From Planctomycetota bacterium (GTDB lineage Bacteria > Planctomycetota > Phycisphaerae > SM23-33), in NCBI GenBank assembly GCA_024275995.1, contig JAJRYB010000067.1, forward strand, positions 28,417 to 92,416: DNA of 64,000 nucleotides, in the 5' to 3' direction. Position 1 is the stretch's first letter. Each line of letters opens with the position of its first letter. Below the pieces are notes generated by a model. That model made no database searches. It was given only the letters and a program-made list of their open reading frames with translations, and had not been told where the DNA came from. Positions 22,645 through 47,192 of this stretch are shown in pieces. The position numbers were made by a program, and so were the translations under genes.

Positions 22645-22986
22645 ATGAAACTTTCCGGACAGGCGACACTGCTGCGGGTCTTCGTGGGCGAATCCGACCA
22701 CTTCGAAGGAAAACCGCTCTACGAGCAGATCGTTCACCGTGCGAGAAAAATGAATATCGCCGGCGCCACCGTTCTGCGGGGCGTTATGGGCTACGGCGCG
22801 ACCAGCCGGGTGCACACCACCTCGCTACTGAGGCTGAGCGAGGACCTTCCGATCGTCGTCGAGATAATCGATACGGAGGAAAAACTCGCGCCGCTGCTCC
22901 CGTTTCTGGACTCCGCGGTGGAAGAAGGCCTGATAACGATGGAGAAGGTCCACATCGTCAAGTACCGTCACGGACCGGCGCAGTAG
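22645..22986 (+). CDS. DUF190/COG1993 P-II-like protein (typical crcB partner)
   Basis: MKLSGQATLLRVFVGESDHFEGKPLYEQIV.., 113 aa, directly downstream of crcB with an AGGAGG RBS. Start trimmed to the ATG at 22645. Confidence 0.75.
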   Translation: MKLSGQATLLRVFVGESDHFEGKPLYEQIVHRARKMNIAGATVLRGVMGYGATSRVHTTSLLRLSEDLPIVVEIIDTEEKLAPLLPFLDSAVEEGLITMEKVHIVKYRHGPAQ

Positions 22987-25378
22987 GCTTTCTCTTTCTC
23001 GTCGTCATCGCCTTGGCGCGTGCTCGCAGGCGGGCGATCTCTGCCAGCTCCGACGCGGTGAATCGCTTGACGCTTTCCGGCAGCAGGCTTCCGTCGATTC
23101 GCTCCGCCCGGCGCAACTGTTCGAGGCACTCCGCCGCCGCACCGGAATCGCAGAGCTTTCGGGCCAGTTCCAGGCGCATGCGCAGCGCCATCGGGTTCAG
23201 TTCTATCGCACGCCGCATCGGCAAGAGCCAGGACGGATCGAGTATCGCCACGGCGGCGCCGCTCGCCGAAGTACCATGGCGGCCGGGCTTCATCATCTCC
23301 GGGTTTATCCTGTACCAGTTGATCCTCCCCCGCAGCAACCAGCTCGACGATCGCAACGGGTCCCGCTCGATCGCCTCCTCCGCCAGTGCGTCCGCACGCG
23401 ACAGGATGGCGTCCAGGTCCGACCTCGCCTCCAGCATCGCCGTCTGGAGGACCAGTTTCGCCGCGTCCCCAGCCGCGATTGCGTCCAGCGGATCGTCACG
23501 CGACGCCAGCTCCATAAGTCTCGCCGCCGCGCCGACCTGCGGCGGGCGACGTTGAAGCTGTCGCAGCGCCGATTCGGTATGGACGCTTCTCCGCCAGAGA
23601 GGTGGGCAGAAGACAATCGCAGCCGTCACGACGGCCGCGGCAGCGACGATGGCGATCGTCCATCGGGTAAGACCCGCCAGGCGTCGCCTTCCGGCGCCGG
23701 CGCTTCCCATGCACGCCCCGGCCGTGACCCAAAACAGCATCGCCGCCGCGGGTGTCCACAGGGTGAATGTCACGAGATTATGCAGGATGAACGCGACGAG
23801 TCCGCCCGCCAGCGCAACGCGAACCGGAGCGCCCGGGGCGAGCAGTCCGTCGCGCAGGCGTTCCCCGGACCACAGGACCAATCCCGCGGCGATGGCGAAA
23901 AAAGCCGCCGGAATCGTCACTTCCAGCAGCAATCCCCCGCCGGAGGCGCCGAAAACCGTAAGCGTCGCCCGCGCCGCGGCAATCGCAGCGGCGGGAACAA
24001 GCAGCATCCAAAGCCCCAAACGCCCCGGTGGCGCGCGGGGATGCGTCTTATCCCCTTGCCCCGGCCGGCACGCGCCGATAACAACGCACGCCAGCAGAAG
24101 CAGGTAGCACGCCCCGCCTGCAACGCCGTACTGCACCAGCGCGTGAACGATGAAATTGTGCGGCGTTTTAACTTCCTCCTCCGCCGAGGCTCGCCGGTGC
24201 ATCAGGTAATATGCGGGAAAGTTACCCGGCCCAACGCCCAGCAGCGGTCGGCTGCGAACGATCCTCGCCGAGGCGCTCCAGTAGTACCAGCGGAACGTCA
24301 TCGTTTTGGTCGGCAGACGATCGTGGATCATTGCGAAACCGACGACCCCCGCCAAAAGCAGTACGAATACCAGCCCGGCGGCGATCGCCGTTCGGCGCCA
24401 CCTGCGTGCGAGCCTGCGGCGTGCCAGGTATGCGATTATCGCGCCCGCCGAGGCAATGGCGGCGCCCCCCAACGCTCCCCTGCTGCCGGTAAGCGCCAAC
24501 GTAACGGGTATCGCCGCCACGATTGCGACGGTTATCGCCGCCGCCAGTGTGGGCGCGTGGACCTCGCCTTTTTTCCGCTTCTGCGACCACGCCCGTCGCA
24601 CGCGAAGGGCGGTCGAGAGTTTCTCAGCCGCCAGACCAATCGCCGCGCCGAGCGTCACCAGCAGCGTGGAAGCGAACACGTTCGAAAGTGCGATGTAACC
24701 GGTCGGCGAGGCGGACCTCACGCGGGCTTCGAAGAGTCTCGCAGCCGGCGAACCGGGCGGCGCACCGGTCGGCCCGACGCCGCCGGCTGGGTTGTCCTCG
24801 AAAAAGGCGATATTTTCCGGGATCTCGACGAAGTATTGCCACAACCCCTTGCCCGCGAGCGTCACGCCCAGGGCAACCAGCAGCACCACGAGCACGGCGA
24901 ACCGTTTTTTTCCATCGCGCGAAGCGCATAGTTGCATCGCCAACCAGCATGCCGAGATAAGCGAGACCTGCTCCAGCCAACCCGTCCACCCGGCCCGCTT
25001 GTCGGATGCGCCCATCGCCGAGAAAAACGACAGGACGACGAACGCCAGGATCGGCCAGACCAGCCAGGCGTGATGAATAATCGTTCCTCCGGATATCGCC
25101 CCTCCGATCAGCCAGAGCGCCACGGCTGAGAGGATAACGACGGCGAAGGTAACCCGCGCCGCTTCCATCCGGTCGATCGGAGGCAGAGGCTCCTCGCCGT
25201 CGCCCATGGCCGGGGAGAAGCTCTGGAAGCTCAGCGACGATACCCGAAAGCCCAACTCGGATATGAAAGGACGGGCCGTCATCACCGCAAGGAGCGTAAC
25301 GAACGCTGCGGTTCGCAGGGCGCGGGCAGCGGCGGAAAGCCCCGGCGACACATCTGCGGTATTATGCTTTGCGATCAT
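22958..25378 (-). CDS. O-antigen ligase (Wzy_C/WaaL)-like polytopic membrane protein with C-terminal TPR-like soluble domain
   Basis: More than 10 predicted TM segments. HNFIVHALVQYGVAGG region typical of O-antigen-ligase family loops. Helical repeat C-terminus. The ORF-track N-terminus (25447) lies inside the 41-bp repeat, so the start is trimmed to MIAKHNTADVS (ATG at 25378). Confidence 0.6.
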   Translation of the reverse strand: MIAKHNTADVSPGLSAAARALRTAAFVTLLAVMTARPFISELGFRVSSLSFQSFSPAMGDGEEPLPPIDRMEAARVTFAVVILSAVALWLIGGAISGGTIIHHAWLVWPILAFVVLSFFSAMGASDKRAGWTGWLEQVSLISACWLAMQLCASRDGKKRFAVLVVLLVALGVTLAGKGLWQYFVEIPENIAFFEDNPAGGVGPTGAPPGSPAARLFEARVRSASPTGYIALSNVFASTLLVTLGAAIGLAAEKLSTALRVRRAWSQKRKKGEVHAPTLAAAITVAIVAAIPVTLALTGSRGALGGAAIASAGAIIAYLARRRLARRWRRTAIAAGLVFVLLLAGVVGFAMIHDRLPTKTMTFRWYYWSASARIVRSRPLLGVGPGNFPAYYLMHRRASAEEEVKTPHNFIVHALVQYGVAGGACYLLLLACVVIGACRPGQGDKTHPRAPPGRLGLWMLLVPAAAIAAARATLTVFGASGGGLLLEVTIPAAFFAIAAGLVLWSGERLRDGLLAPGAPVRVALAGGLVAFILHNLVTFTLWTPAAAMLFWVTAGACMGSAGAGRRRLAGLTRWTIAIVAAAAVVTAAIVFCPPLWRRSVHTESALRQLQRRPPQVGAAARLMELASRDDPLDAIAAGDAAKLVLQTAMLEARSDLDAILSRADALAEEAIERDPLRSSSWLLRGRINWYRINPEMMKPGRHGTSASGAAVAILDPSWLLPMRRAIELNPMALRMRLELARKLCDSGAAAECLEQLRRAERIDGSLLPESVKRFTASELAEIARLRARAKAMTTRKRKPTAPVRDGT

Positions 25379-25387
25379 GATTTTTTT

Positions 25388-25640
25388 GATATCCACCTCG
25401 CGCCATGTGCCTGTGCTCACAGTTTTTTGATATCCACCTCGCGCCATGTGCCTGTGCTCACAGTTTTTTGATATCCACCTCGCGCCATGTGCCCGTGCTC
25501 ACAGTTTTTTGATATCCACCTCGCGCCATGTACCCGTGCTCACAGTTTTTTGATATCCACCTCGCGCCATGTGCCCGTGCTCGCAGTTTTTTGATATCCA
25601 CCTCGCGCCATGTGCCTGTGTTCACACTTTTTTGACGGGC
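25388..25640. repeat. Tandem direct repeat, 6 x 41 bp plus a degenerate seventh copy
   Basis: Unit GATATCCACCTCGCGCCATGTGCC[T/C]GTGCTCACAGTTTTTT starts at 25388, 25429, 25470, 25511, 25552 and 25593. A partial copy starts at 25634. There are 1-2 substitutions per copy. The array fills the gap between the GT4 gene stop and the ligase-like gene start. Confidence 0.95.
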
Positions 25641-26710
25641 GATTCGAGCAGCGCTATGATCAGCAGGATTGCGATGGTCTGCGCGAACAGCAGAACCGCG
25701 CCCACGGCGTCCACTCGCGCAAGCAGCGAAGCGCAGATCGCCGTCGCGGCAGTGCACAGGCAGATCGTCAGCAGCGCTGTCCGCGCGCTCATTCCGCGTC
25801 GGAGCAGGCGATGCGAAAAATGCCTCCGATCGCCGATCATCGGATTGGCGCGTTCGCGAATCCGCAGTGTGATCACGCTCGCCATATCGTAAAGCGGAAC
25901 GGCCATCAGCACCAGCGGCACGAATATCCCGTACAGGTAATAGGTCTGCCCCGGTGAAACGTAGGTCGTCAGACAGCTCACGACGCCCAGGAAGTATCCG
26001 ATCAGCATCGACCCGGCGTCGCCCATGTACGTTCGCGCCGGGGGAAAATTATAGGGCAGGAACCCCAGCAGCGCCCCGATGATCAGGCACAACCACGCCG
26101 AGACGAATATCTGCCCCATGCTCGCCGAGGCGCTCAGCAGCGCCACGGCGCAGATAACCGCCACCGAGGCGCTCAGCCCGTCCATGTTGTCCAGGAAGTT
26201 GAAGGCGTTGATAATCACGATAAGCCAGGCAAGCGAAACGATGAAGCTGACCGCCCCCCCGACGGCAGTGAGAATCCGCACGTCGCACAGCCAGACCACA
26301 CCACCGGCTACCATGACCTGTGCGGCGAGTTTCACCCACGGACCCAGCGCCCTGCGATCGTCGATAAGCCCGACAACGTGCAGTACGAACGCCCCGGCGA
26401 GAATGCCCAGCGCCTTTGGCGCCTTAAGCGCCGCCCCGGAAATGTGGGGCTTGATAGCGTCGGGAATCCAGTCCGGCACGCCGGACGCCGTCCAGATTCG
26501 CGCCAGCGACAGCGCCAGGAGGCTTGGAATAAGAATCGCGACGAAGATTGCACTTCCGCCCAGCAGGGGAACGGGCGTCGCGTGCGTCTTACGCAGGCCC
26601 GGGGGATCCATTATTCCCCATTGACGCGCAAGGCGCTGCGAAACCGGCGTCGCAAGCGCAGAAATCGCCACCGCGAGTGCGATAGTTCCGACGGCTGCCC
26701 ATATTATCAC
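25622..26710 (-). CDS. Glycosyltransferase family 4 (MraY/WecA-like undecaprenyl-phosphate sugar-1-phosphate transferase)
   Basis: NAFNFLDNMDGL motif and polytopic topology. 362 aa. Confidence 0.85.
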   Translation of the reverse strand: MIIWAAVGTIALAVAISALATPVSQRLARQWGIMDPPGLRKTHATPVPLLGGSAIFVAILIPSLLALSLARIWTASGVPDWIPDAIKPHISGAALKAPKALGILAGAFVLHVVGLIDDRRALGPWVKLAAQVMVAGGVVWLCDVRILTAVGGAVSFIVSLAWLIVIINAFNFLDNMDGLSASVAVICAVALLSASASMGQIFVSAWLCLIIGALLGFLPYNFPPARTYMGDAGSMLIGYFLGVVSCLTTYVSPGQTYYLYGIFVPLVLMAVPLYDMASVITLRIRERANPMIGDRRHFSHRLLRRGMSARTALLTICLCTAATAICASLLARVDAVGAVLLFAQTIAILLIIALLESPVKKV

Positions 26711-29749: not shown

Positions 29750-29789
29750 TCGACATTCACCGGCCGGCTGTCTACAATCCGCAATCGTA

Positions 29790-32300
29790 ATGGGGCCATC
29801 GTCGCCGAATGAGCTTGGTCGTCCCCGCCTGCGTCGCGCGCCGCTGGTGCCGGTCGCGGCTGCGATGATCGCCGGTATCCTCGCCGGGCGATATCTCCCG
29901 CTTCCGCTGGCGATGTGGTGCGTTACGGGCGTGGCGGCTATCGCCGTCGCCGTCGCAACCTTCCCACGCAGGCACCTGGCGGAAATCTCGAAAACGGCGA
30001 TCGGCGTGGCGGTTCTCTGCGCCGGTGCGGCGAACCTGCGGCTGGCGTATTTCCACATACCCGACGACCATATCGTCACCTGCACGAGACGGGCGCCTTC
30101 GCTGGCGACCGTTCGCGGACGGATCGTCAGCTCACCACAGACGGCCCGGCCCGTCAGCGCGAACCTCGGCGGTTACAGCCCGGGCCCGAGAACGAATTTC
30201 ATTCTCCGCGCGGAGAGCATCCGGACGAAAGACGGGTATCGCCGGACAAGCGGGCTGCTGTCGGTAATGGTGAAGGAGCCCCGTCGGAACCTCCTCGCCG
30301 GGCAACAGGTGGAGCTTGTCGGATGGCTTTCCCGGTTCCGACCGCCGCGCAACCCCGGCGAACTTGACCTCCGCGAACTCAAACGCCGCAAGGGGATTCT
30401 CGCACGCATGACGCTCGAAAGTCGCGACGCGGTGATCGTTACGCAGGTCGGCGAGAAGCCGTGGTACACGCGAATGTACTGGAATATCCGCGCTGCCGCC
30501 GGCCAGCACTTGACGAGCGAAGATAGCGGCGAAGGACGCCTCGTAAGCGCGCTGGTCCTCGGAAAGAGGCATCCGACGCTGAAAAAACTCTCCGGGATCA
30601 TGGTGCGGGCCGGAATCGCCCACATGCTGAGCATCTCGGGCCTGCACCTGGGAATCTTTCTCGGGTTCGTGTTCCTGCTCTGCCGGATCGTCGCGATGTC
30701 TTCCAGGCGCTCGGCGACGGTGGTCCTGGTGGTCCTGATAGCATACGTCCTGCTGGCCGAGGCCCGCGCTCCGCTGTTGCGGTCCGCGGTGATGGCGGCG
30801 GCATTGTGCCTGGGAATGATCTTCGGACGAAGACAAATGGCGCTCAATTCGCTCGCCGTCGCGGCGATCGTCCTGCTGGCGGTTGACCCGCTCCAGATTT
30901 TCTCGGCTGGGTTCCAACTCAGTTTCACCATCGTCGCGGGCATTATCCTGTTCCTGCATCCCGCGCGACGGTTGTTGTTTGGCCGGTGGCTGCGGCGACG
31001 TGGACTTATGGTGTTCCGCAGGGAAGACCGCCTTCGACGCTGGGTCCAGTTCGTCGTCGCGGACCGTCTTACTTACGCCGTCGCCATGTGTCTTGTAGCG
31101 TATCTCTCGGCGGCGCCGCTGGTGGCGTATCATTTCGGACTTTTCAATCCGTACGCCCCGCTGCTGAGCCTGCTGCTCCTGCCGTTTCTCGTCGCCATTC
31201 TCGTACCGGGGTACATATCCCTGGCGCTGGTTTGGCCGATGCCGAATCTCGCCTGGCAATTCAGCCGTGCCGCCGAATCCGCCGCCGGCGCGATGCGGCG
31301 GGTCGTCGAGGGCATCGATAAACTTCCCGCACTGAGCGTCTCGCTGCGTCCGCTCGATTGGTGGTGGGTCTGGATGTGCTACGCCGCCTTGCTGCTTGTG
31401 GCGTATTACAGGCGGATTCCCTTCGGCAGGATACCGGCGGCGTGTGCGCTGGCGATTGTCGCGGCGACGGCGGTCGTTTCGCAACTGCCCGCGCCGCGAC
31501 CGGATGCGGCGGAGTTGAACATGCTGGCCGTGGGCGACGGGCAGTGCGTCCTTCTGCGGACGCCGAGCGGACAGACGTATCTCATCGACGCGGGGACCAT
31601 CAGCGGGTTCGACGTCTACGAGTACGCACTCGCACCGTTCGTGCGACGGGAGCGGCTGCCAAGCCCACGCGCGGCGTTCATCTCACACGCGAACACGGAC
31701 CACTACGGTGCAATTGCACCTGCGATGCGCGATGGGTGGGCGAAAAAAGTGTACCTGAACGATTATTTCGGGCGGGAGGAATACTCCGCGCCGGGCGTGA
31801 TAACCATGATGGATCTGTTCCGCAAAACGGCGAGGCAACGCGTTCGCCTGCGCGCTGGGGACGTAGTCCGCCTGGACGAGCGAACGAGCGTATCGGTCCT
31901 CTGGCCGCCGGTTCATCGCCGCGACGGGCTGAGCATAAACAATACTTCGCTTGTCCTGCGCATTACATGCGACGGAAAGAGCGTTCTGCTGCCGGGCGAC
32001 CTGGACGCCGATGGGCAGGCGGTACTCGCGAAAATGCCGGAGCGGATCACTTCGGACGTGCTCGTTCTACCGCACCACGGCGGGTGGGAAAATCAATTGC
32101 CCGCTTTCTTCGACGCAGTATCGCCCAGGATCGTCCTCGTCAGCACCAGCCATGACCCGAAAGGCCCAGCAACTTCCCCCGCCGCGGCGAGGTTCTATAA
32201 TCGCATCCGGACGAACCATCGGTATTATTCGACCGCGAGGAACGGCTGGATCCGCGTGCGATTCGGCGCCTCCGGGATCGACGTGAAGACAATGCGTTGA
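29790..32300 (+). CDS. comEC: DNA internalisation competence protein ComEC/Rec2
   Basis: N-terminal DUF4131-like TM region, competence domain, and C-terminal MBL domain (HANTDHYG...LPHHGG). Confidence 0.88.
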   Translation: MGPSSPNELGRPRLRRAPLVPVAAAMIAGILAGRYLPLPLAMWCVTGVAAIAVAVATFPRRHLAEISKTAIGVAVLCAGAANLRLAYFHIPDDHIVTCTRRAPSLATVRGRIVSSPQTARPVSANLGGYSPGPRTNFILRAESIRTKDGYRRTSGLLSVMVKEPRRNLLAGQQVELVGWLSRFRPPRNPGELDLRELKRRKGILARMTLESRDAVIVTQVGEKPWYTRMYWNIRAAAGQHLTSEDSGEGRLVSALVLGKRHPTLKKLSGIMVRAGIAHMLSISGLHLGIFLGFVFLLCRIVAMSSRRSATVVLVVLIAYVLLAEARAPLLRSAVMAAALCLGMIFGRRQMALNSLAVAAIVLLAVDPLQIFSAGFQLSFTIVAGIILFLHPARRLLFGRWLRRRGLMVFRREDRLRRWVQFVVADRLTYAVAMCLVAYLSAAPLVAYHFGLFNPYAPLLSLLLLPFLVAILVPGYISLALVWPMPNLAWQFSRAAESAAGAMRRVVEGIDKLPALSVSLRPLDWWWVWMCYAALLLVAYYRRIPFGRIPAACALAIVAATAVVSQLPAPRPDAAELNMLAVGDGQCVLLRTPSGQTYLIDAGTISGFDVYEYALAPFVRRERLPSPRAAFISHANTDHYGAIAPAMRDGWAKKVYLNDYFGREEYSAPGVITMMDLFRKTARQRVRLRAGDVVRLDERTSVSVLWPPVHRRDGLSINNTSLVLRITCDGKSVLLPGDLDADGQAVLAKMPERITSDVLVLPHHGGWENQLPAFFDAVSPRIVLVSTSHDPKGPATSPAAARFYNRIRTNHRYYSTARNGWIRVRFGASGIDVKTMR

Positions 32301-42002: not shown

Positions 42003-42117
42003 TCCTGTGAAGCTCGCGTTGTTTGCCAGCGAAGGAGGGCTTTTCCGCCAAGAGCTTTCTAAACAGCCCCATTCCCCCCCGCTTGAGAGTAAGGCTTCGG
42101 GGTGATAGCATGTTTCC

Positions 42118-43506
42118 ATGCCCAAGCGAAACCTGATCTGGATTCTCGCCATCGTCGCAGCCGCCGTGGTTACCGTGTGGGTCGCCCGCACGCCGCCGCC
42201 GGTTGTCAGCGACCCGGACCAGGCGCGTTTTCGTTCCGTCGTGTGGACGTTCCGGAAGATCAGGGACAACTACTATCGGGACGTGTCGCCGGAGAGTCTC
42301 CGTCGCGGCGCCGTCAACGGAATGATCGGCGCGCTCGACGAGTTCTCCTCGTACGTTTCTCCCGACCGGGTCGAGGCGTTCCTGCATCGCATCGCGGGCG
42401 ATCAGCGGGGAATCGGACTGCGCCTGCGAAAAATTCCGGATGTCGGACTGGTGGTCATCGGACCGCTGGTCGGTTCACCGGCGCACAAGGCGGGAATAGT
42501 CCGCGGCGATAAACTTTTGCGCATCGACGGCTGGAATACGCAAGGGGCTTCCATGCGGGAAGTCCGTCGGCGCCTTCGCGGGAAGATCGGCACCGTCGTT
42601 ACGCTCGATATCATGCGCGCCGACGGGAAGGTAGAGAGCATCACCCTGCGTCGCACGGAGTTCGTTATCGAGACGGTCCGGGGGCTGTATCGAAACGCCG
42701 AGGGCAAGTGGGTCTGGACGATCGACGAATCCGGGCGGATCGCGTACGTTCGAATCCGCGAATTCACGAAACTCACCGCCCGGCAGTTTCGCCAGGCGCA
42801 GAGGCAAATGGGTTCGCCGAGAGGAATCATACTCGACCTGCGCGATAATCCCGGCGGGCTGCTGACCTCGGCAATCGAAATCAGCGATATGTTCCTGCGC
42901 GACGGGATAATCGTGGAAGCTCTCAGCCGGACCGGGGGACGCCGTGTGTACCGCGCCAACCGGGCAGGCACGTTCCCGCAGAATGTCCCGATGATCGTGC
43001 TGATCAACGAACGGACGGCCTCGGCTGCGGAAATCGTCGCCGGCGCGCTCAGCGTTAACCATCGAGCTGTCGTCGTCGGTACGCGAAGCCGTGGAAAAGG
43101 ATGTATCCAGAGCATCATTCCGCTCCCGGAGAAGCTCGGACAGATGAACCTGACGACGAAGATTTTTCTGCTCGGATCGAAACGTCCGATCAGCCGGCTT
43201 CCGGGCAGCGATATATGGGGCGTCGATCCGCACGTACAGGTCGTGCTCTCTCCCGTCGCACAGGCGACTCTTCGCGACCTTTGGCGGAAAACGGAGGTCG
43301 CCGCGCCTCCGATGCCGACCACCGCCCCGACCAGGCCGGCAGCCGGGGACGCGAAAAAGTTCCTGGAACTCGACGACCCGCTGGCCTACGCAGTAAACCT
43401 GCTGGACAAACCCAGCGAGATACGGAAAATTCTCGATCATGCACGCCAGGTCGCCGAAGCAAAGGCTCGCGCCCAAAGCATCGCAGGCACCGAGGACAAT
43501 GACTGA
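42118..43506 (+). CDS. ctp: Carboxyl-terminal processing protease (peptidase S41) with PDZ domain
   Basis: Signal anchor, PDZ (GLVVIGPLVGSPAHKAGIVRGDKLLRIDG), and S41 core NERTASAAEIVAGAL. Confidence 0.85.
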   Translation: MPKRNLIWILAIVAAAVVTVWVARTPPPVVSDPDQARFRSVVWTFRKIRDNYYRDVSPESLRRGAVNGMIGALDEFSSYVSPDRVEAFLHRIAGDQRGIGLRLRKIPDVGLVVIGPLVGSPAHKAGIVRGDKLLRIDGWNTQGASMREVRRRLRGKIGTVVTLDIMRADGKVESITLRRTEFVIETVRGLYRNAEGKWVWTIDESGRIAYVRIREFTKLTARQFRQAQRQMGSPRGIILDLRDNPGGLLTSAIEISDMFLRDGIIVEALSRTGGRRVYRANRAGTFPQNVPMIVLINERTASAAEIVAGALSVNHRAVVVGTRSRGKGCIQSIIPLPEKLGQMNLTTKIFLLGSKRPISRLPGSDIWGVDPHVQVVLSPVAQATLRDLWRKTEVAAPPMPTTAPTRPAAGDAKKFLELDDPLAYAVNLLDKPSEIRKILDHARQVAEAKARAQSIAGTEDND

Positions 43507-44596
43507 ATCCGCCCTTATCTTCGGCGTCGAGTCCAGCTGCGACGAAACGAGCTGCGCCGTCGTCGCTGATGGTCGGCGAGTGCTGTCCAACGTGGTGTCC
43601 AGCCAGATCGACCTGCACGCACGGTTCGGCGGCGTCGTCCCCGAACTCGCGTCACGGGCGCATATCGAGGCGATAAACACCGTTATCGAACGGGCGATGA
43701 ACCAGGCAAACGTCTCGCCCGATCAAATCGACGCCGTCGCCGTGACCTGCCAGCCGGGACTGATCGGCTCGCTCCTGGTCGGACTGATGGCCGCCAAAAC
43801 GCTCGCATGGACATGGGGCGTTCCGCTCATCGGGGTCAACCACGTTTACGCGCACGCCTATTCGCCGGCGCTGGACGCCGAACCCGTCGAGTACCCCGCG
43901 GCAGCGCTTATATGCAGCGGTGGGCACACCGCGCTGTATCGATGCGACTCGCCGAGGGACCTGGAGCTTCTGGGAAGCACGATCGACGACGCAGCCGGCG
44001 AGGTCTTCGATAAGGTCGCCTGTATCCTGAACCTGGGATATCCGGGAGGACCGGTGATAGATCGCGTCGCGGGAAACGGCGATCCGGCGCTGCTCGATTT
44101 TCCGCGATCGCTCCTGAAAGGCGACTCGCTGGACTTTTCGTTCAGCGGACTCAAGACGGCGGTGCTGTATCACGTCAACGGCCAGCCCGGAGGTTCGCGA
44201 AAGCCCCGCCGACGAAAAACCGGACCACACGCTCTGCGGCAGGCAGCCCAGAGCGGCGCCGGACACGGAATCGAGCATTTCACGGAGCAGGAAATTGCGG
44301 ACGTAGCGGCGAGTTTCCAGCAGGCGGTCGTGGAGGTGCTATGCGTCAAGTTGCGGCGTGCAGCCAAGCAAATCGCCGCCAGAACGATGATCGTTGGAGG
44401 GGGCGTATCGGCGAATTCCGCGTTGAGAAACGCCTTGCAGGTAGAGGCGGACAAACTCGGCTGCGGGCTGCGAATGCCGCCGCTGAGCTATTGCGTGGAT
44501 AACGCCGCTATGATCGCAGGACTCGGCTTCCACTACTTCCAGGCAGGAAAGATAGACGCCTACGACCTTCCGGCACGAGCGACAGTTCGACGCTGA
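43499..44596 (+). CDS. tsaD: tRNA N6-adenosine threonylcarbamoyltransferase TsaD
   Basis: LIFGVESSCDETSCAVV, GVNHVYAHA and GGVSANSALR motifs. Contains a ~20-aa basic insertion relative to E. coli. Start overlaps the ctp stop. Confidence 0.9.
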   Translation: MTESALIFGVESSCDETSCAVVADGRRVLSNVVSSQIDLHARFGGVVPELASRAHIEAINTVIERAMNQANVSPDQIDAVAVTCQPGLIGSLLVGLMAAKTLAWTWGVPLIGVNHVYAHAYSPALDAEPVEYPAAALICSGGHTALYRCDSPRDLELLGSTIDDAAGEVFDKVACILNLGYPGGPVIDRVAGNGDPALLDFPRSLLKGDSLDFSFSGLKTAVLYHVNGQPGGSRKPRRRKTGPHALRQAAQSGAGHGIEHFTEQEIADVAASFQQAVVEVLCVKLRRAAKQIAARTMIVGGGVSANSALRNALQVEADKLGCGLRMPPLSYCVDNAAMIAGLGFHYFQAGKIDAYDLPARATVRR

Positions 44597-44622
44597 GAGA
44601 CAATTACCTGTATAATACCGCC

Positions 44623-44688
44623 ATGAATGAAGATGTCTTCAAAGACCTCCTGGACTCGCTCTGCAGCGGCGAGGTGAGCAACGATTGA
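44623..44688 (+). CDS. 21-codon upstream mini-ORF duplicating the larB 5' end (possible leader peptide or remnant)
   Basis: MNEDVFKDLLDSLCSGEVSND* versus LarB MNEDALRDLLESLRNGTASVDD. The first 15 nt are identical. Preceded by a perfect TATAAT (44610..44615) and followed by an A11 tract (44693..44703). Confidence 0.3.
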   Translation: MNEDVFKDLLDSLCSGEVSND

Positions 44689-44707
44689 CTGTAAAAAAAA
44701 AAACGCC

Positions 44708-45463
44708 ATGAATGAAGATGCCCTGAGAGACCTCCTGGAATCGCTTCGCAACGGAACCGCAAGCGTGGACGACGCCCTTGAATCGCTGCGGCGATTGCCA
44801 TTCGAGCAGATGGACTTCGCCACGGTCGATCACCATCGTGCGATTCGCTGCGGCTTCCCGGAAGTGATCTACTGCCCCTCGAAGACGCCTGAACAGGTCG
44901 TGGCGATTTTCCGATCGCTTGCGAGCGGAGGGGGAAACGTGCTGGCGACCCGCGCCGGGGAGGATGTTTACGATGCCGTCCTCGCCGAGCTGCCCGACGC
45001 CGAGTATCACACACCCGCCAGCGCGATAACGCTGCGACAGGTGGACAGTTCCAGGGCGGTCGGACACGTAGCCGTCGTCTCGGCGGGAACCAGCGATATG
45101 TCCGTAGCGGACGAAGCGCGCGTGACGGCGGAGATTATGGACGCGCATGTCACCACGCATTACGACGTGGGCGTCGCGGGACTGCACCGGCTGCTGGCGC
45201 ACGGCGAACAGTTGCAATCGGCAAACGCCATCGTCGTCGTCGCCGGAATGGAAGGCGCGCTGGCGAGCGTAGTGGGCGGGCTGGTGAGCGTTCCGGTGCT
45301 TGCGGTGCCTACCTCGGTGGGATACGGCGCGAGCTTCCACGGGTTGGCGGCGCTTCTGGCTATGCTCAACAGCTGCGCGTCGAACGTGAGCGTGGTGAAT
45401 ATCGACAATGGATTCGCCGGCGGGTATATCGCGGCGATGATCAACCGGCAGGCAGCGAAATGA
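44708..45463 (+). CDS. larB: Nickel-pincer cofactor biosynthesis protein LarB (PurE-like carboxylase/hydrolase)
   Basis: The N-terminal helix (..LLESLRNGTASVDDALESLRRLPFEQMDFATVDHHRAIRCGFPEVIY) matches the LarB-specific N-terminus. PurE-like core with GMEGALASVVGG. Confidence 0.75.
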   Translation: MNEDALRDLLESLRNGTASVDDALESLRRLPFEQMDFATVDHHRAIRCGFPEVIYCPSKTPEQVVAIFRSLASGGGNVLATRAGEDVYDAVLAELPDAEYHTPASAITLRQVDSSRAVGHVAVVSAGTSDMSVADEARVTAEIMDAHVTTHYDVGVAGLHRLLAHGEQLQSANAIVVVAGMEGALASVVGGLVSVPVLAVPTSVGYGASFHGLAALLAMLNSCASNVSVVNIDNGFAGGYIAAMINRQAAK

Positions 45464-46338
45464 ACGCCGAGAAAGTGACATCGCTTCCGAAACTTCCCTC
45501 ACGCGAACCCGACGCGCACAAGGGCGACTTCGGACGCGTACTTGTGGTGGGCGGATCGCGCGGAATGATCGGAGCGCCTTCGCTGGCTGCCAACGCAGCC
45601 TTGCGCAGCGGAGCGGGGCTGGTAACCGTCGCCGCACCGCGGGACGTACAGTTGTTCGTCGCGACGCTCTGTCCGTGCGCAACGTCGATTCCGCTGTCCT
45701 GCGGGGAAACGGGCGATCCCGTCGCCGGCGCCGTCCGAGAAATGCTCGATGCCGCGAAACGCTGCGACGTATTGGCCGCCGGGTGCGGAATGGGCGCGGG
45801 GGTCGCGCAGGAAAATCTCATCCGCGCGGCGATCGGGCAGGAACGTCCTCTCGTTCTGGACGCCGACGGATTGAACAACCTCGCGAAGATCGACGATTGG
45901 CCGTCCTTGCGACGATGCCCGCTGGTTCTTACGCCGCACGTCGGCGAATTCGCACGCCTCACGCGCCGCCCCGTCGCCCGAATACAGGCGGACCGCGCCT
46001 CGGCGGCAATCGACGCTGCCGGGCAATGGACCGTCGGCGAACCGCCGCCGGTCGTTGTCCTGAAGGGCGCCGCAACGGTCGTCACGGACGGAAAACGCAT
46101 CTTCGTGAACGATACGGGCAATCCGGGGATGGCGACCGGTGGAAGCGGCGACGTGCTGACGGGGCTTCTCGCGGCGATAATCGGACAGGGACTTTCGCCG
46201 TTCGAGGCTGCGTGCCTGGCTGTCAACGTTCATGGCCGCTCCGGCGACCTTGCCGCCGAAGCGCTGGGCGAAACGTCGCTGATCGCCACCGACCTGCTCG
46301 ATTATCTCCCGGCGGCTCTAAAACAGCGGTCCTCATGA
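45460..46338 (+). CDS. nnrD: ADP-dependent NAD(P)H-hydrate dehydratase (YjeF C-terminal domain)
   Basis: GDFGRVLVVGGSRGMIGAPSLAANAALRSGAGLV, TPHVGEF and GNPGMATGGSGDVLTG motifs. ATGA overlap with larB. Confidence 0.88.
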   Translation: MNAEKVTSLPKLPSREPDAHKGDFGRVLVVGGSRGMIGAPSLAANAALRSGAGLVTVAAPRDVQLFVATLCPCATSIPLSCGETGDPVAGAVREMLDAAKRCDVLAAGCGMGAGVAQENLIRAAIGQERPLVLDADGLNNLAKIDDWPSLRRCPLVLTPHVGEFARLTRRPVARIQADRASAAIDAAGQWTVGEPPPVVVLKGAATVVTDGKRIFVNDTGNPGMATGGSGDVLTGLLAAIIGQGLSPFEAACLAVNVHGRSGDLAAEALGETSLIATDLLDYLPAALKQRSS

Positions 46339-47192
46339 AACGAATCACGGTAATCCTGGTAATCGCCGCCTCGCTTCTGGGCTGCAACGAGGGGAAGCCT
46401 TCTCGCGGCGACGCGCCCAGGCCACGGATCGTAAGTTTCTCGCCCGCCCTTACGGACATGCTTTACGATATGGGCCTGGGCGATCACGTCGTCGGCGTGA
46501 CCACCTATTGCATGCCGCCCGGAAACAACCCGCCCCCCGCGGTCGGTAACCGTTTCAAGGTCAGCGCCGAGGCGATTCTCTCGGTCTCGCCGGACGTTAT
46601 CCTTTCGCAGCAGAACCCCGACGACTTCGCCGCCGTTGGGAAGATCGACCCGGACGTGAAAGTCCAGTTCGTCCGGATGGAGACGTTTAAGGACATCGCC
46701 GAGACCATCGAGCGTCTCGGACGGATCACCGGACGGGACGAAATCGGCAGGCAGCGCAAGTGGGCGTTTCTCGAAAGGCTTGAGAGGGTAGCGGCGCGCG
46801 TGAAAGGCAGGCCGCGCCCCAGGACGCTGTTCGTGATGGGTTACGAGAGGCCCTCGACCGGAGGGAGCGGAACGTTCATCGACGACATGATTCGCACTGC
46901 AGGCGGTATCGACGCCGCGACGGACCGCGGATACTCCGGCTGGAAAATGCTGAACCGCGAGAACATTCTCGCGATGAGGCCGGATGTTCTCATCTGCCAG
47001 GTATCCGACGGGCAGGAACCAGCCGCCCGGAAATACTGGCGAACGCTGGGCGACCTTCCGGCAGTGCAGCAGGGGCGGGTGTTCATCGTGACGGATCGCC
47101 GATGGACGATCCCCTCGATACGATCGGCGCAGTACGCTGGGAAACTCGCCGAAATGATTCACCCGGACGAACCTGGAAGGTCGGGTCGATGA
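46335..47192 (+). CDS. ABC transporter periplasmic substrate-binding lipoprotein, BtuF/FecB (cluster A, class 8) type
   Basis: Lipobox LLGC. The MGLGDHVVGVT..C...P motif is typical of BtuF/haem/siderophore binding proteins. Start at MKRITVIL (46335), overlapping the nnrD stop. Confidence 0.8.
   Translation: MKRITVILVIAASLLGCNEGKPSRGDAPRPRIVSFSPALTDMLYDMGLGDHVVGVTTYCMPPGNNPPPAVGNRFKVSAEAILSVSPDVILSQQNPDDFAAVGKIDPDVKVQFVRMETFKDIAETIERLGRITGRDEIGRQRKWAFLERLERVAARVKGRPRPRTLFVMGYERPSTGGSGTFIDDMIRTAGGIDAATDRGYSGWKMLNRENILAMRPDVLICQVSDGQEPAARKYWRTLGDLPAVQQGRVFIVTDRRWTIPSIRSAQYAGKLAEMIHPDEPGRSGR

Follow-up and report, generated by a model that had tools for sequence, protein, structure and literature searches.

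The start of larB is present twice in a 64-kb stretch of DNA from an uncultured member of the Phycisphaerae (Planctomycetota), here called the window. A 21-codon open reading frame (ORF) that copies the beginning of LarB (the mini-ORF; forward strand, 44623 to 44688) stands just upstream of larB itself (forward strand, 44708 to 45463, 251 amino acids), and a run of 11 A residues lies between the two. This arrangement very probably descends from an old, lineage-specific tandem duplication of the promoter and start of a leaderless larB gene, and would thus be a scar rather than a conserved switch. An origin of the locus by duplication is highly probable; the consequences proposed below for its expression are plausible, and we hold them with moderate confidence.

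The mini-ORF begins with the ATG at 44623, ends with a TGA at 44686 to 44688, and encodes the peptide MNEDVFKDLLDSLCSGEVSND. Its codons (ATG AAT GAA GAT GTC TTC AAA GAC CTC CTG GAC TCG CTC TGC AGC GGC GAG GTG AGC AAC GAT TGA) correspond to the opening of larB at ATG 44708 (ATG AAT GAA GAT GCC CTG AGA ...; protein beginning MNEDALRDLLESLRNGTASVDD) over codons 1 to 19, and codons 20 to 22 come from a duplicated spacer. An in-frame TAA is found one codon past the TGA, and 19 nucleotides (nt) separate the TGA from the larB ATG. Together, the starts make up a direct repeat of 56 nt with 82% identity and a spacing of 85 nt, which is one of only four direct-repeat families in the window with a length of at least 30 nt and copies no more than 400 nt apart. 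With the repeat units bounded at 44608 to 44688 and 44689 to 44773, which is one choice of boundaries, their alignment scored 32.5, compared to -6.8 +/- 3.9 (maximum, 7) for 2000 shuffles. Head-to-tail copies so far above chance are those of a tandem segmental duplication. A preliminary description of this DNA had reported both a mini-ORF copying the LarB N terminus ahead of the genuine larB and an A11 tract between the copies; both are confirmed, and the tract consists of exactly 11 A residues at 44693 to 44703.

The similarity also extends beyond the codons. The region following tsaD, the gene upstream of larB, consists, in order, of TGA, gagacaattacctg, TATAAT, accgcc, copy 1, ctg taa aaaaaaaaa cgcc, and copy 2 on the forward strand, and ACAATTACCTGTA (44600 to 44612) agrees with ACGATTGACTGTA (44681 to 44693) at 10 of 13 positions (empirical P = 5.5e-4); elsewhere in the window, a match of 10/13 at an offset of 81 was reached at 0.05% of the positions. 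Past the A-run the offset is 85, and the similarity continues via CGCC-ATG to codon 19 (AGC) and then ends. The matches thus run from about 44592/44600 to about 44679, a length of ~80 positions, and the period is 81 (85 since the A-run expanded). Since the similar stretch equals the period, and since the similarity at offset 81 covers the spacer and the -10 box too, a single in-frame tandem duplication of 81 bp would account for the whole structure. The first unit (copy 1, ~81 nt, 44600 to 44680) would comprise the tsaD-larB spacer, a -10 box, and the first 19 codons, and the second (copy 2, 85 nt, 44681 to 44765) would comprise the degenerated spacer, the former -10 box, and the functional larB codons 1 to 19.

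Copy 1 carries the signature of a leaderless start. A perfect -10 box, TATAAT, is located at 44611 to 44616 and is followed by a spacer of 6 nt (ACCGCC) and the ATG at 44623; the preliminary description had placed the box at 44610 to 44615 and the gap at 8 nt, and both values are corrected here. In a promoter scan of positions 43300 to 46500, the best site (10/12 consensus matches) was formed by this box and the -35-like hexamer TCGACG (44587 to 44592), which is recognized by consensus match only and lies inside the 3' end of tsaD, 18 nt upstream of TATAAT. No Shine-Dalgarno (SD) motif precedes copy 1, the upstream sequence ...CCTGTATAATACCGCC being devoid of GGAG and AGGA. In leaderless genes, TANNNT has its first T ~12 nt upstream of the initiation codon (Zheng et al. 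2011, PMC3160421), and this -10 signature has been validated experimentally in Deinococcus (PMC12340547). In copy 1 the T is at 44611 and the ATG is at 44623; in the window, the signature is present at copy 1 and absent at the real larB start.

The same signature was found in the relatives. We compared 163 related loci, of which 80 were from species-representative genomes, 80 were from metagenomes, and three (L161 to L163) were the contigs of three of the closest LarB proteins. When the 70 nt before the larB ATG were aligned among relatives, most close relatives had a -10 box (TATAAT, TACACT, or TAGACT) 6 to 9 nt before the ATG, and the closest ones mostly had the exact TATAAT. TANNNT with a 6- to 9-nt spacer was present in 33/49 nonredundant loci with at least 62% LarB identity, compared to 15/85 more distant ones, and those close loci had almost no TANNNT elsewhere in the 60 nt upstream of larB. 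Overextended gene calls in relatives translate the -10 box, yielding "...EGYNAPMNE..." or "...VYNADMNE...". Since most of the close Phycisphaerae relatives have the box at this distance from the ATG, larB appears to be ancestrally leaderless in this lineage.

Which of the two copies occupies the ancestral position can be judged from the last codons of tsaD (ATVRR and the stop), which fix the geometry. In L161, the closest relative by local DNA (79% LarB identity), tsaD ends in ...ACGGTTCGACGCTGA, after which come 14 nt, TATAAT, another 6 nt, and the ATG; in the window, where tsaD ends in ...ACAGTTCGACGCTGA, copy 1 shows the same elements at identical spacing. The distance from the tsaD stop to the ATG is 26 nt for copy 1 and 111 nt for larB, and it is 16 to 57 nt in most close relatives. 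The identical spacing in L161 and the position of the box in the relatives indicate that copy 1 is the positional orthologue of the ancestral larB start. The leaderless-like upstream ORF (uORF) envisaged in the preliminary description is therefore upheld in its architecture, as TATAAT-N6-ATG matches the ancestral leaderless larB start kept in relatives; the signal-sensing leader peptide that it also proposed is not upheld, as discussed below.

Two flavours of promoter were seen upstream of larB in the relatives (e.g., loci L011, L014, L017, L018, L021, L026, and L093 to L095). The closest group has the exact TATAAT with no obvious -35 element, and the other flavour has TACACT with a conserved TTGCC(G/C) -35-like element ~17 to 18 nt upstream; together they offer a small comparative view of sigma-70-type promoters in Phycisphaerae. 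A window-wide scan for leaderless genes, which is noisy, gave only a few further leaderless or short-leader candidates, among them an S41 peptidase gene (TAGCAT-6 nt-ATG at 42118; region 42100 to 42120) with only 3 open codons upstream, and an 836-amino-acid ORF at 29790 (TACAAT-11 nt-ATG; region 29768 to 29792). Since many genes of the window have GGAG-like motifs, the genome seems to mix leaderless and SD modes of initiation.

The duplication itself is confined to this genome. Comparing related genomes for copy 1 and the A-run had been suggested in the preliminary description; neither the duplicated larB start nor an A-run before larB was found in any of the 163 loci. When the 400 nt upstream of larB were matched locally to its first 90 nt, the best score was 31 (DNA) and 58 (protein) in the window, compared to 10.1 +/- 1.8 (maximum, 14) and 22.7 +/- 3.9 (maximum, 35), respectively, in 79 genome loci. 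Both copies have L13 (8%), D4, and D8, which are rare in 48 relatives, indicating that the copies are each other's closest relatives. The recombination scar, which the preliminary description had listed as a possibility, is accordingly the best-supported origin, given a tandem duplication of ~81 bp that is absent from the related loci and lineage-specific derived residues that are common to both copies.

The A-run (forward strand, 44693 to 44703) occupies positions -15 to -5 of the larB ATG, and the fold prediction leaves it unpaired. No homopolymer in the 64 kb is longer; a T9 comes second, and ~0.002 such runs would be expected from the base composition. A comparison of CTG-TATAATAC-CGCC-ATG with CTG-TAAAAAAAAAAA-CGCC-ATG reveals three substitutions and four extra A residues, and on this alignment the A-run is best read as a decayed and expanded second -10 box. 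Neither this degenerated second box nor the leaderless ancestry of larB had been noticed in the preliminary description.

We propose the following history. A segment of ~81 bp (about 44600 to 44680) would have been duplicated in tandem, in this genome alone. As 81 nt correspond to 27 codons, the original duplication would have been in frame and would at first have yielded a LarB extended in frame at its N terminus. In the upstream copy, TATAAT-N6-ATG would have been retained, and the spacer triplet TAC would have become TGA to yield the 21-codon ORF; the last codons of the mini-ORF (AAC GAT TGA) are equivalent to the duplicated spacer gAC AAT TAC, from which it follows that the stop codon arose from TAC. 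The downstream copy would have kept the coding function, and its -10 box would have changed from TATAATAC to TAAAAAAAAAAA, conceivably through an intermediate form such as TAAAATAC. The four extra A residues, probably gained by slippage, would have put the two ATGs out of frame. Both the TGA stop and the +4 expansion would be later than the duplication.

The divergence of the copies suggests that the duplication is old and that copy 1 is relaxed. With L161 as the outgroup, a hand count gave about 11 derived nucleotide changes for copy 1 and about 7 for copy 2. Copy 1 is derived at conserved LarB positions (L6F and R14C), and copy 2 is derived at variable positions (N15, T17, and A18), where copy 1 has the ancestral SGEV. 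Between the copies, ~7 nonsynonymous and 2 to 3 synonymous differences were counted by hand in codons 1 to 16, a near-neutral pattern over too few sites for conclusions on selection. The odds that a 21-codon frame is open by chance at this GC content are, by our estimate, roughly even.

In the present arrangement, transcription would begin at or beside A44623 from the retained promoter, as this is the sole promoter-like site upstream and the second -10 box is destroyed (TAAAAA, lacking the final T). Read-through from tsaD is also possible because no terminator intervenes. Ribosomes would bind at the AUG that forms the 5' terminus, read 21 codons, and terminate at the UGA, with the UAA as a backup. 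The larB start would then lie 85 nt inside the mRNA, where it has no SD motif upstream, and new initiation on the unstructured A-rich start would be the main route to LarB. We rank this route first because, in Escherichia coli, initiation at SD-poor starts is promoted by A-rich sequence in the preceding 15 nt (Saito et al. 2020, PMC7043885). Re-initiation at larB by ribosomes terminating 19 nt upstream would be a secondary, less efficient route, and the two routes may act singly or together. The peptide encoded by the mini-ORF is most likely a by-product and not a regulator.

Several points weigh against this reconstruction. The unit boundaries are uncertain by about +/-8 nt, and the step from -10 box to A-run is based on the flanks (CTGTA and CGCC) and not on intermediates. 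One genome carries the feature, and the next relative has 80% LarB identity, so that the proposed order and age of the mutations are tentative. With respect to expression, we infer the transcription start, the translation of the mini-ORF, and the mode of larB initiation. Coupling by re-initiation reportedly drops sharply over distances under 20 nt (PMC12548453), so that a gap of 19 nt is marginal; and since GGAG-like motifs are common among the other genes of the window, the SD-less internal start of larB may be weak. The chance of an artefact, considered below, also counts here.

Among the alternatives, a regulatory leader peptide or uORF survives best. The translation of the mini-ORF would sense a metabolite, amino-acid supply, or nickel, and attenuation or re-initiation would control larB. 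A short leaderless ORF on the same strand, with its stop 19 nt before an SD-less start, has a suitable layout for this; mycobacterial leaderless uORFs can be attenuators (10.1101/834739); and most of the residues that differ between the copies are conservative replacements (V/A, F/L, K/R, D/E, and S/N). We nevertheless regard such a device as improbable. No intrinsic terminator or alternative hairpin was found, including any terminator-like site in 44596 to 44708, and the 148-nt leader folds no better than its shuffles (z = +0.76), with a centroid that is almost unpaired. A search of 44000 to 45200 against Rfam at E values up to 10 gave no match, and MNEDVFKDLLDSLCSGEVSND has no run of regulatory codons and no repeated diagnostic residue, with one Cys only. 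A classical attenuator is thus unsupported. Furthermore, the mini-ORF is missing from all of the related loci, the L6F and R14C changes in copy 1 fall at conserved LarB positions as under relaxed constraint, and the hand-counted differences in codons 1 to 16 are near neutral. On the same grounds (the fold, the Rfam search, the lack of terminator or hairpin, and no conservation outside this genome), the signal-sensing peptide of the preliminary description is not sustained. The Rfam and folding results also led us to reject a riboswitch or other structured leader, and we rejected terminator attenuation, as well as a minus-strand terminator built on the T11 complement, because no terminator-like site is present there.

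Less probable still is a phase-variable or rheostat-like A-tract, a slippage-prone switch having been among the readings of the preliminary description, in which slippage of the A11 would shift the distance from the uORF stop to larB, or the strength of the start, and generate cell-to-cell variation in LarB. Homopolymer tracts of this length slip. The run is far beyond chance, has seemingly grown by 4 nt relative to its template, and exceeds the homopolymer length of ~8 nt or more that is associated with phase-variable loci. However, its location is not that of a phase-variation tract: it lies in the 5' leader past the mini-ORF stop, outside any ORF, not between -35 and -10, and downstream of the sole promoter-like site. 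On/off switching is therefore impossible, and changes in length would only modulate. Decay of a redundant -10 box is a simpler account and fits the position and flanks of the run.

A broader idea, to which we likewise assign little probability, is that the structure is an adaptive device and not a scar, with the length of the A-run setting the efficiency of the larB restart or the peptide modulating LarB or a partner. If so, slippage drift would make cells differ in their capacity for the nickel-pincer cofactor, or the 21-residue peptide would mimic the LarB N-terminal helix and bind LarB or its partner.

An assembly or binning artefact, in which the upstream copy would come from the larB start of a related organism through a misjoin, is very unlikely. 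The source is a metagenome-assembled genome seen once: the identical LarB occurs once in the protein collection (P0001, a single member on one 94-kb NCBI contig), exact-protein look-up gave no second record, and the next-best LarB is 80% identical, the genome and metagenome scans having given no more than 75%. However, collapsed or duplicated reads do not explain copies with 82% identity, both copies have the rare derived L13, D4, and D8, copy 1 runs on without a break from a tsaD 3' end whose geometry is that of L161, and the junction, well inside a long contig, is an orderly head-to-tail succession of spacer, promoter, and codons. The 18% divergence, the common derived states, and the orderly structure thus argue against misassembly.

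Other candidates were rejected outright. A second larB promoter inside copy 1 was not detected in the scan, and by eye TTGACT (44685 to 44690) has just ATGAAT at the right distance, TAAAAA having no final T. The copies are not a diversity-generating retroelement pair, because their differences are not restricted to adenine positions. A fusion of the mini-ORF to larB by frameshift or read-through is impossible, as the TGA is followed by an in-frame TAA and the A-run lies past both stops.

The locus resembles several known systems without being identical to any of them. Leaderless genes have been described mainly for Actinobacteria and Deinococcus-Thermus. As in the leaderless "TA-led" genes (PMC3160421; PMC12340547), copy 1 lacks an SD motif and has a perfect TATAAT, the first T of which stands 12 nt ahead of the ATG, but this start now opens a 21-codon remnant and not its former gene. 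Mycobacteria commonly have leaderless short ORFs in front of annotated genes (Shell et al. 2015, PMC4633059; 10.1101/834739), and these uORFs are the nearest functional analogue: there, too, a short ORF on the same strand lies at the predicted mRNA 5' end with its stop upstream of the gene. At larB the co-directional ORF ends at 44688, before the gene starts at 44708, and the mRNA 5' end is predicted. In contrast to the mycobacterial uORFs, the predicted larB mini-ORF is not conserved in any relative and has no enriched regulatory codons; moreover, unlike that of the mycobacterial uORFs, including the polycysteine attenuators (10.1101/834739), its origin is evident, since it copies the start of the downstream gene.

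Termination-reinitiation systems (Huber et al. 2019, PMC6728339; PMC12548453) likewise have an upstream ORF ending near an SD-less start. In classical coupling, however, the stop and start overlap (ATGA or TGATG) or lie a few nucleotides apart; the 19-nt gap between the mini-ORF and larB falls outside this range, and coupling is reportedly much reduced at such a distance. The classical form is found in the same operon at the junction of larB with the downstream dehydratase gene (nnrD), where the larB stop and the ATG overlap in ATGA (45460 to 45463). The A11 at -15 to -5 of an SD-less AUG, predicted to be unpaired, is reminiscent of A-rich, SD-independent starts (PMC7043885; Baez et al. 2019, PMC6847099), although the published contexts are A enriched and that of larB is an 11-nt homopolymer. 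Homopolymeric contingency loci share with larB a long A-run that was apparently expanded by slippage, but the larB run is in the 5' leader and not in a coding frame or a promoter spacer.

The identity of the genes is clear. The larB product scored 285.7 bits with the NCBIfam LarB equivalog model (NF033503; cut-off, 175) and matched the solved LarB of L. plantarum (7MJ0) over residues 8 to 249 (E = 5e-65). It is preceded by tsaD (forward strand, 43439 to 44596; NCBIfam TIGR03723 TsaD, 405.6 bits) and followed by the NAD(P)H-hydrate dehydratase gene nnrD (forward strand, 45460 to 46338; NCBIfam TIGR00196, 237.8 bits). Many Planctomycetota relatives share the order tsaD-larB-NAD(P)HX dehydratase, with tsaD as the direct upstream neighbour of larB in 43/144 related loci and a dehydratase homologue downstream in 65/160. 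The presence of a nicotinamide-repair enzyme beside a gene for a nicotinic-acid-derived cofactor may be more than coincidence. For annotation, larB should be called from the second ATG, which is its true start, and the short upstream ORF should not be treated as a gene family of its own.

The LarB N terminus also contains a repeat of its own. Codons 8 to 28 (44729 to 44790) include an internal 20-nt repeat (family D2) with units 42 nt apart and 80% identical, GACCTCCTGGAATCGCTTCG and GACGCCCTTGAATCGCTGCG, which encode DLLESLR and DALESLR, respectively. The segment, which may form two similar helices, is outside the core of the NCBIfam LarB profile, which begins at residue 40.

A second repeat in the window multiplies an ATG-bearing unit just upstream of a gene start. 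At 25382 to 25635, in minus-strand sense, a 41-nt unit (ctgtgagcacgggcacATGGCGCGAGGTGGATATCAAAAAA) is repeated in tandem in 6.2 copies with 96% identity, and every copy has both an ATG and an A6 run. Bordering the array are the genes at 25622 to 26710 and 22958 to 25390 (both minus strand); an O-antigen-ligase-like (Wzy_C) gene lies on one side and a family-4 glycosyltransferase gene on the other, the true start of the former being likely aaaaaaatcATGATC. The copy number of the array might be variable and affect this surface-polysaccharide gene.

The larB locus is not a new regulatory system and is not conserved; it is an evolutionary illustration. It could also serve as a simple test bed that combines a uORF, an A-run, and an SD-less start. 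If our reconstruction is right, it would be a natural example of a leaderless gene gaining a 5' leader and a uORF in one step: its own promoter and start would have been duplicated in tandem, after which the second -10 box, now redundant, would have decayed to a homopolymer. No published work on leaderless expression in Planctomycetota came to our notice, and the larB data provide comparative evidence for leaderless larB across many Phycisphaerae.

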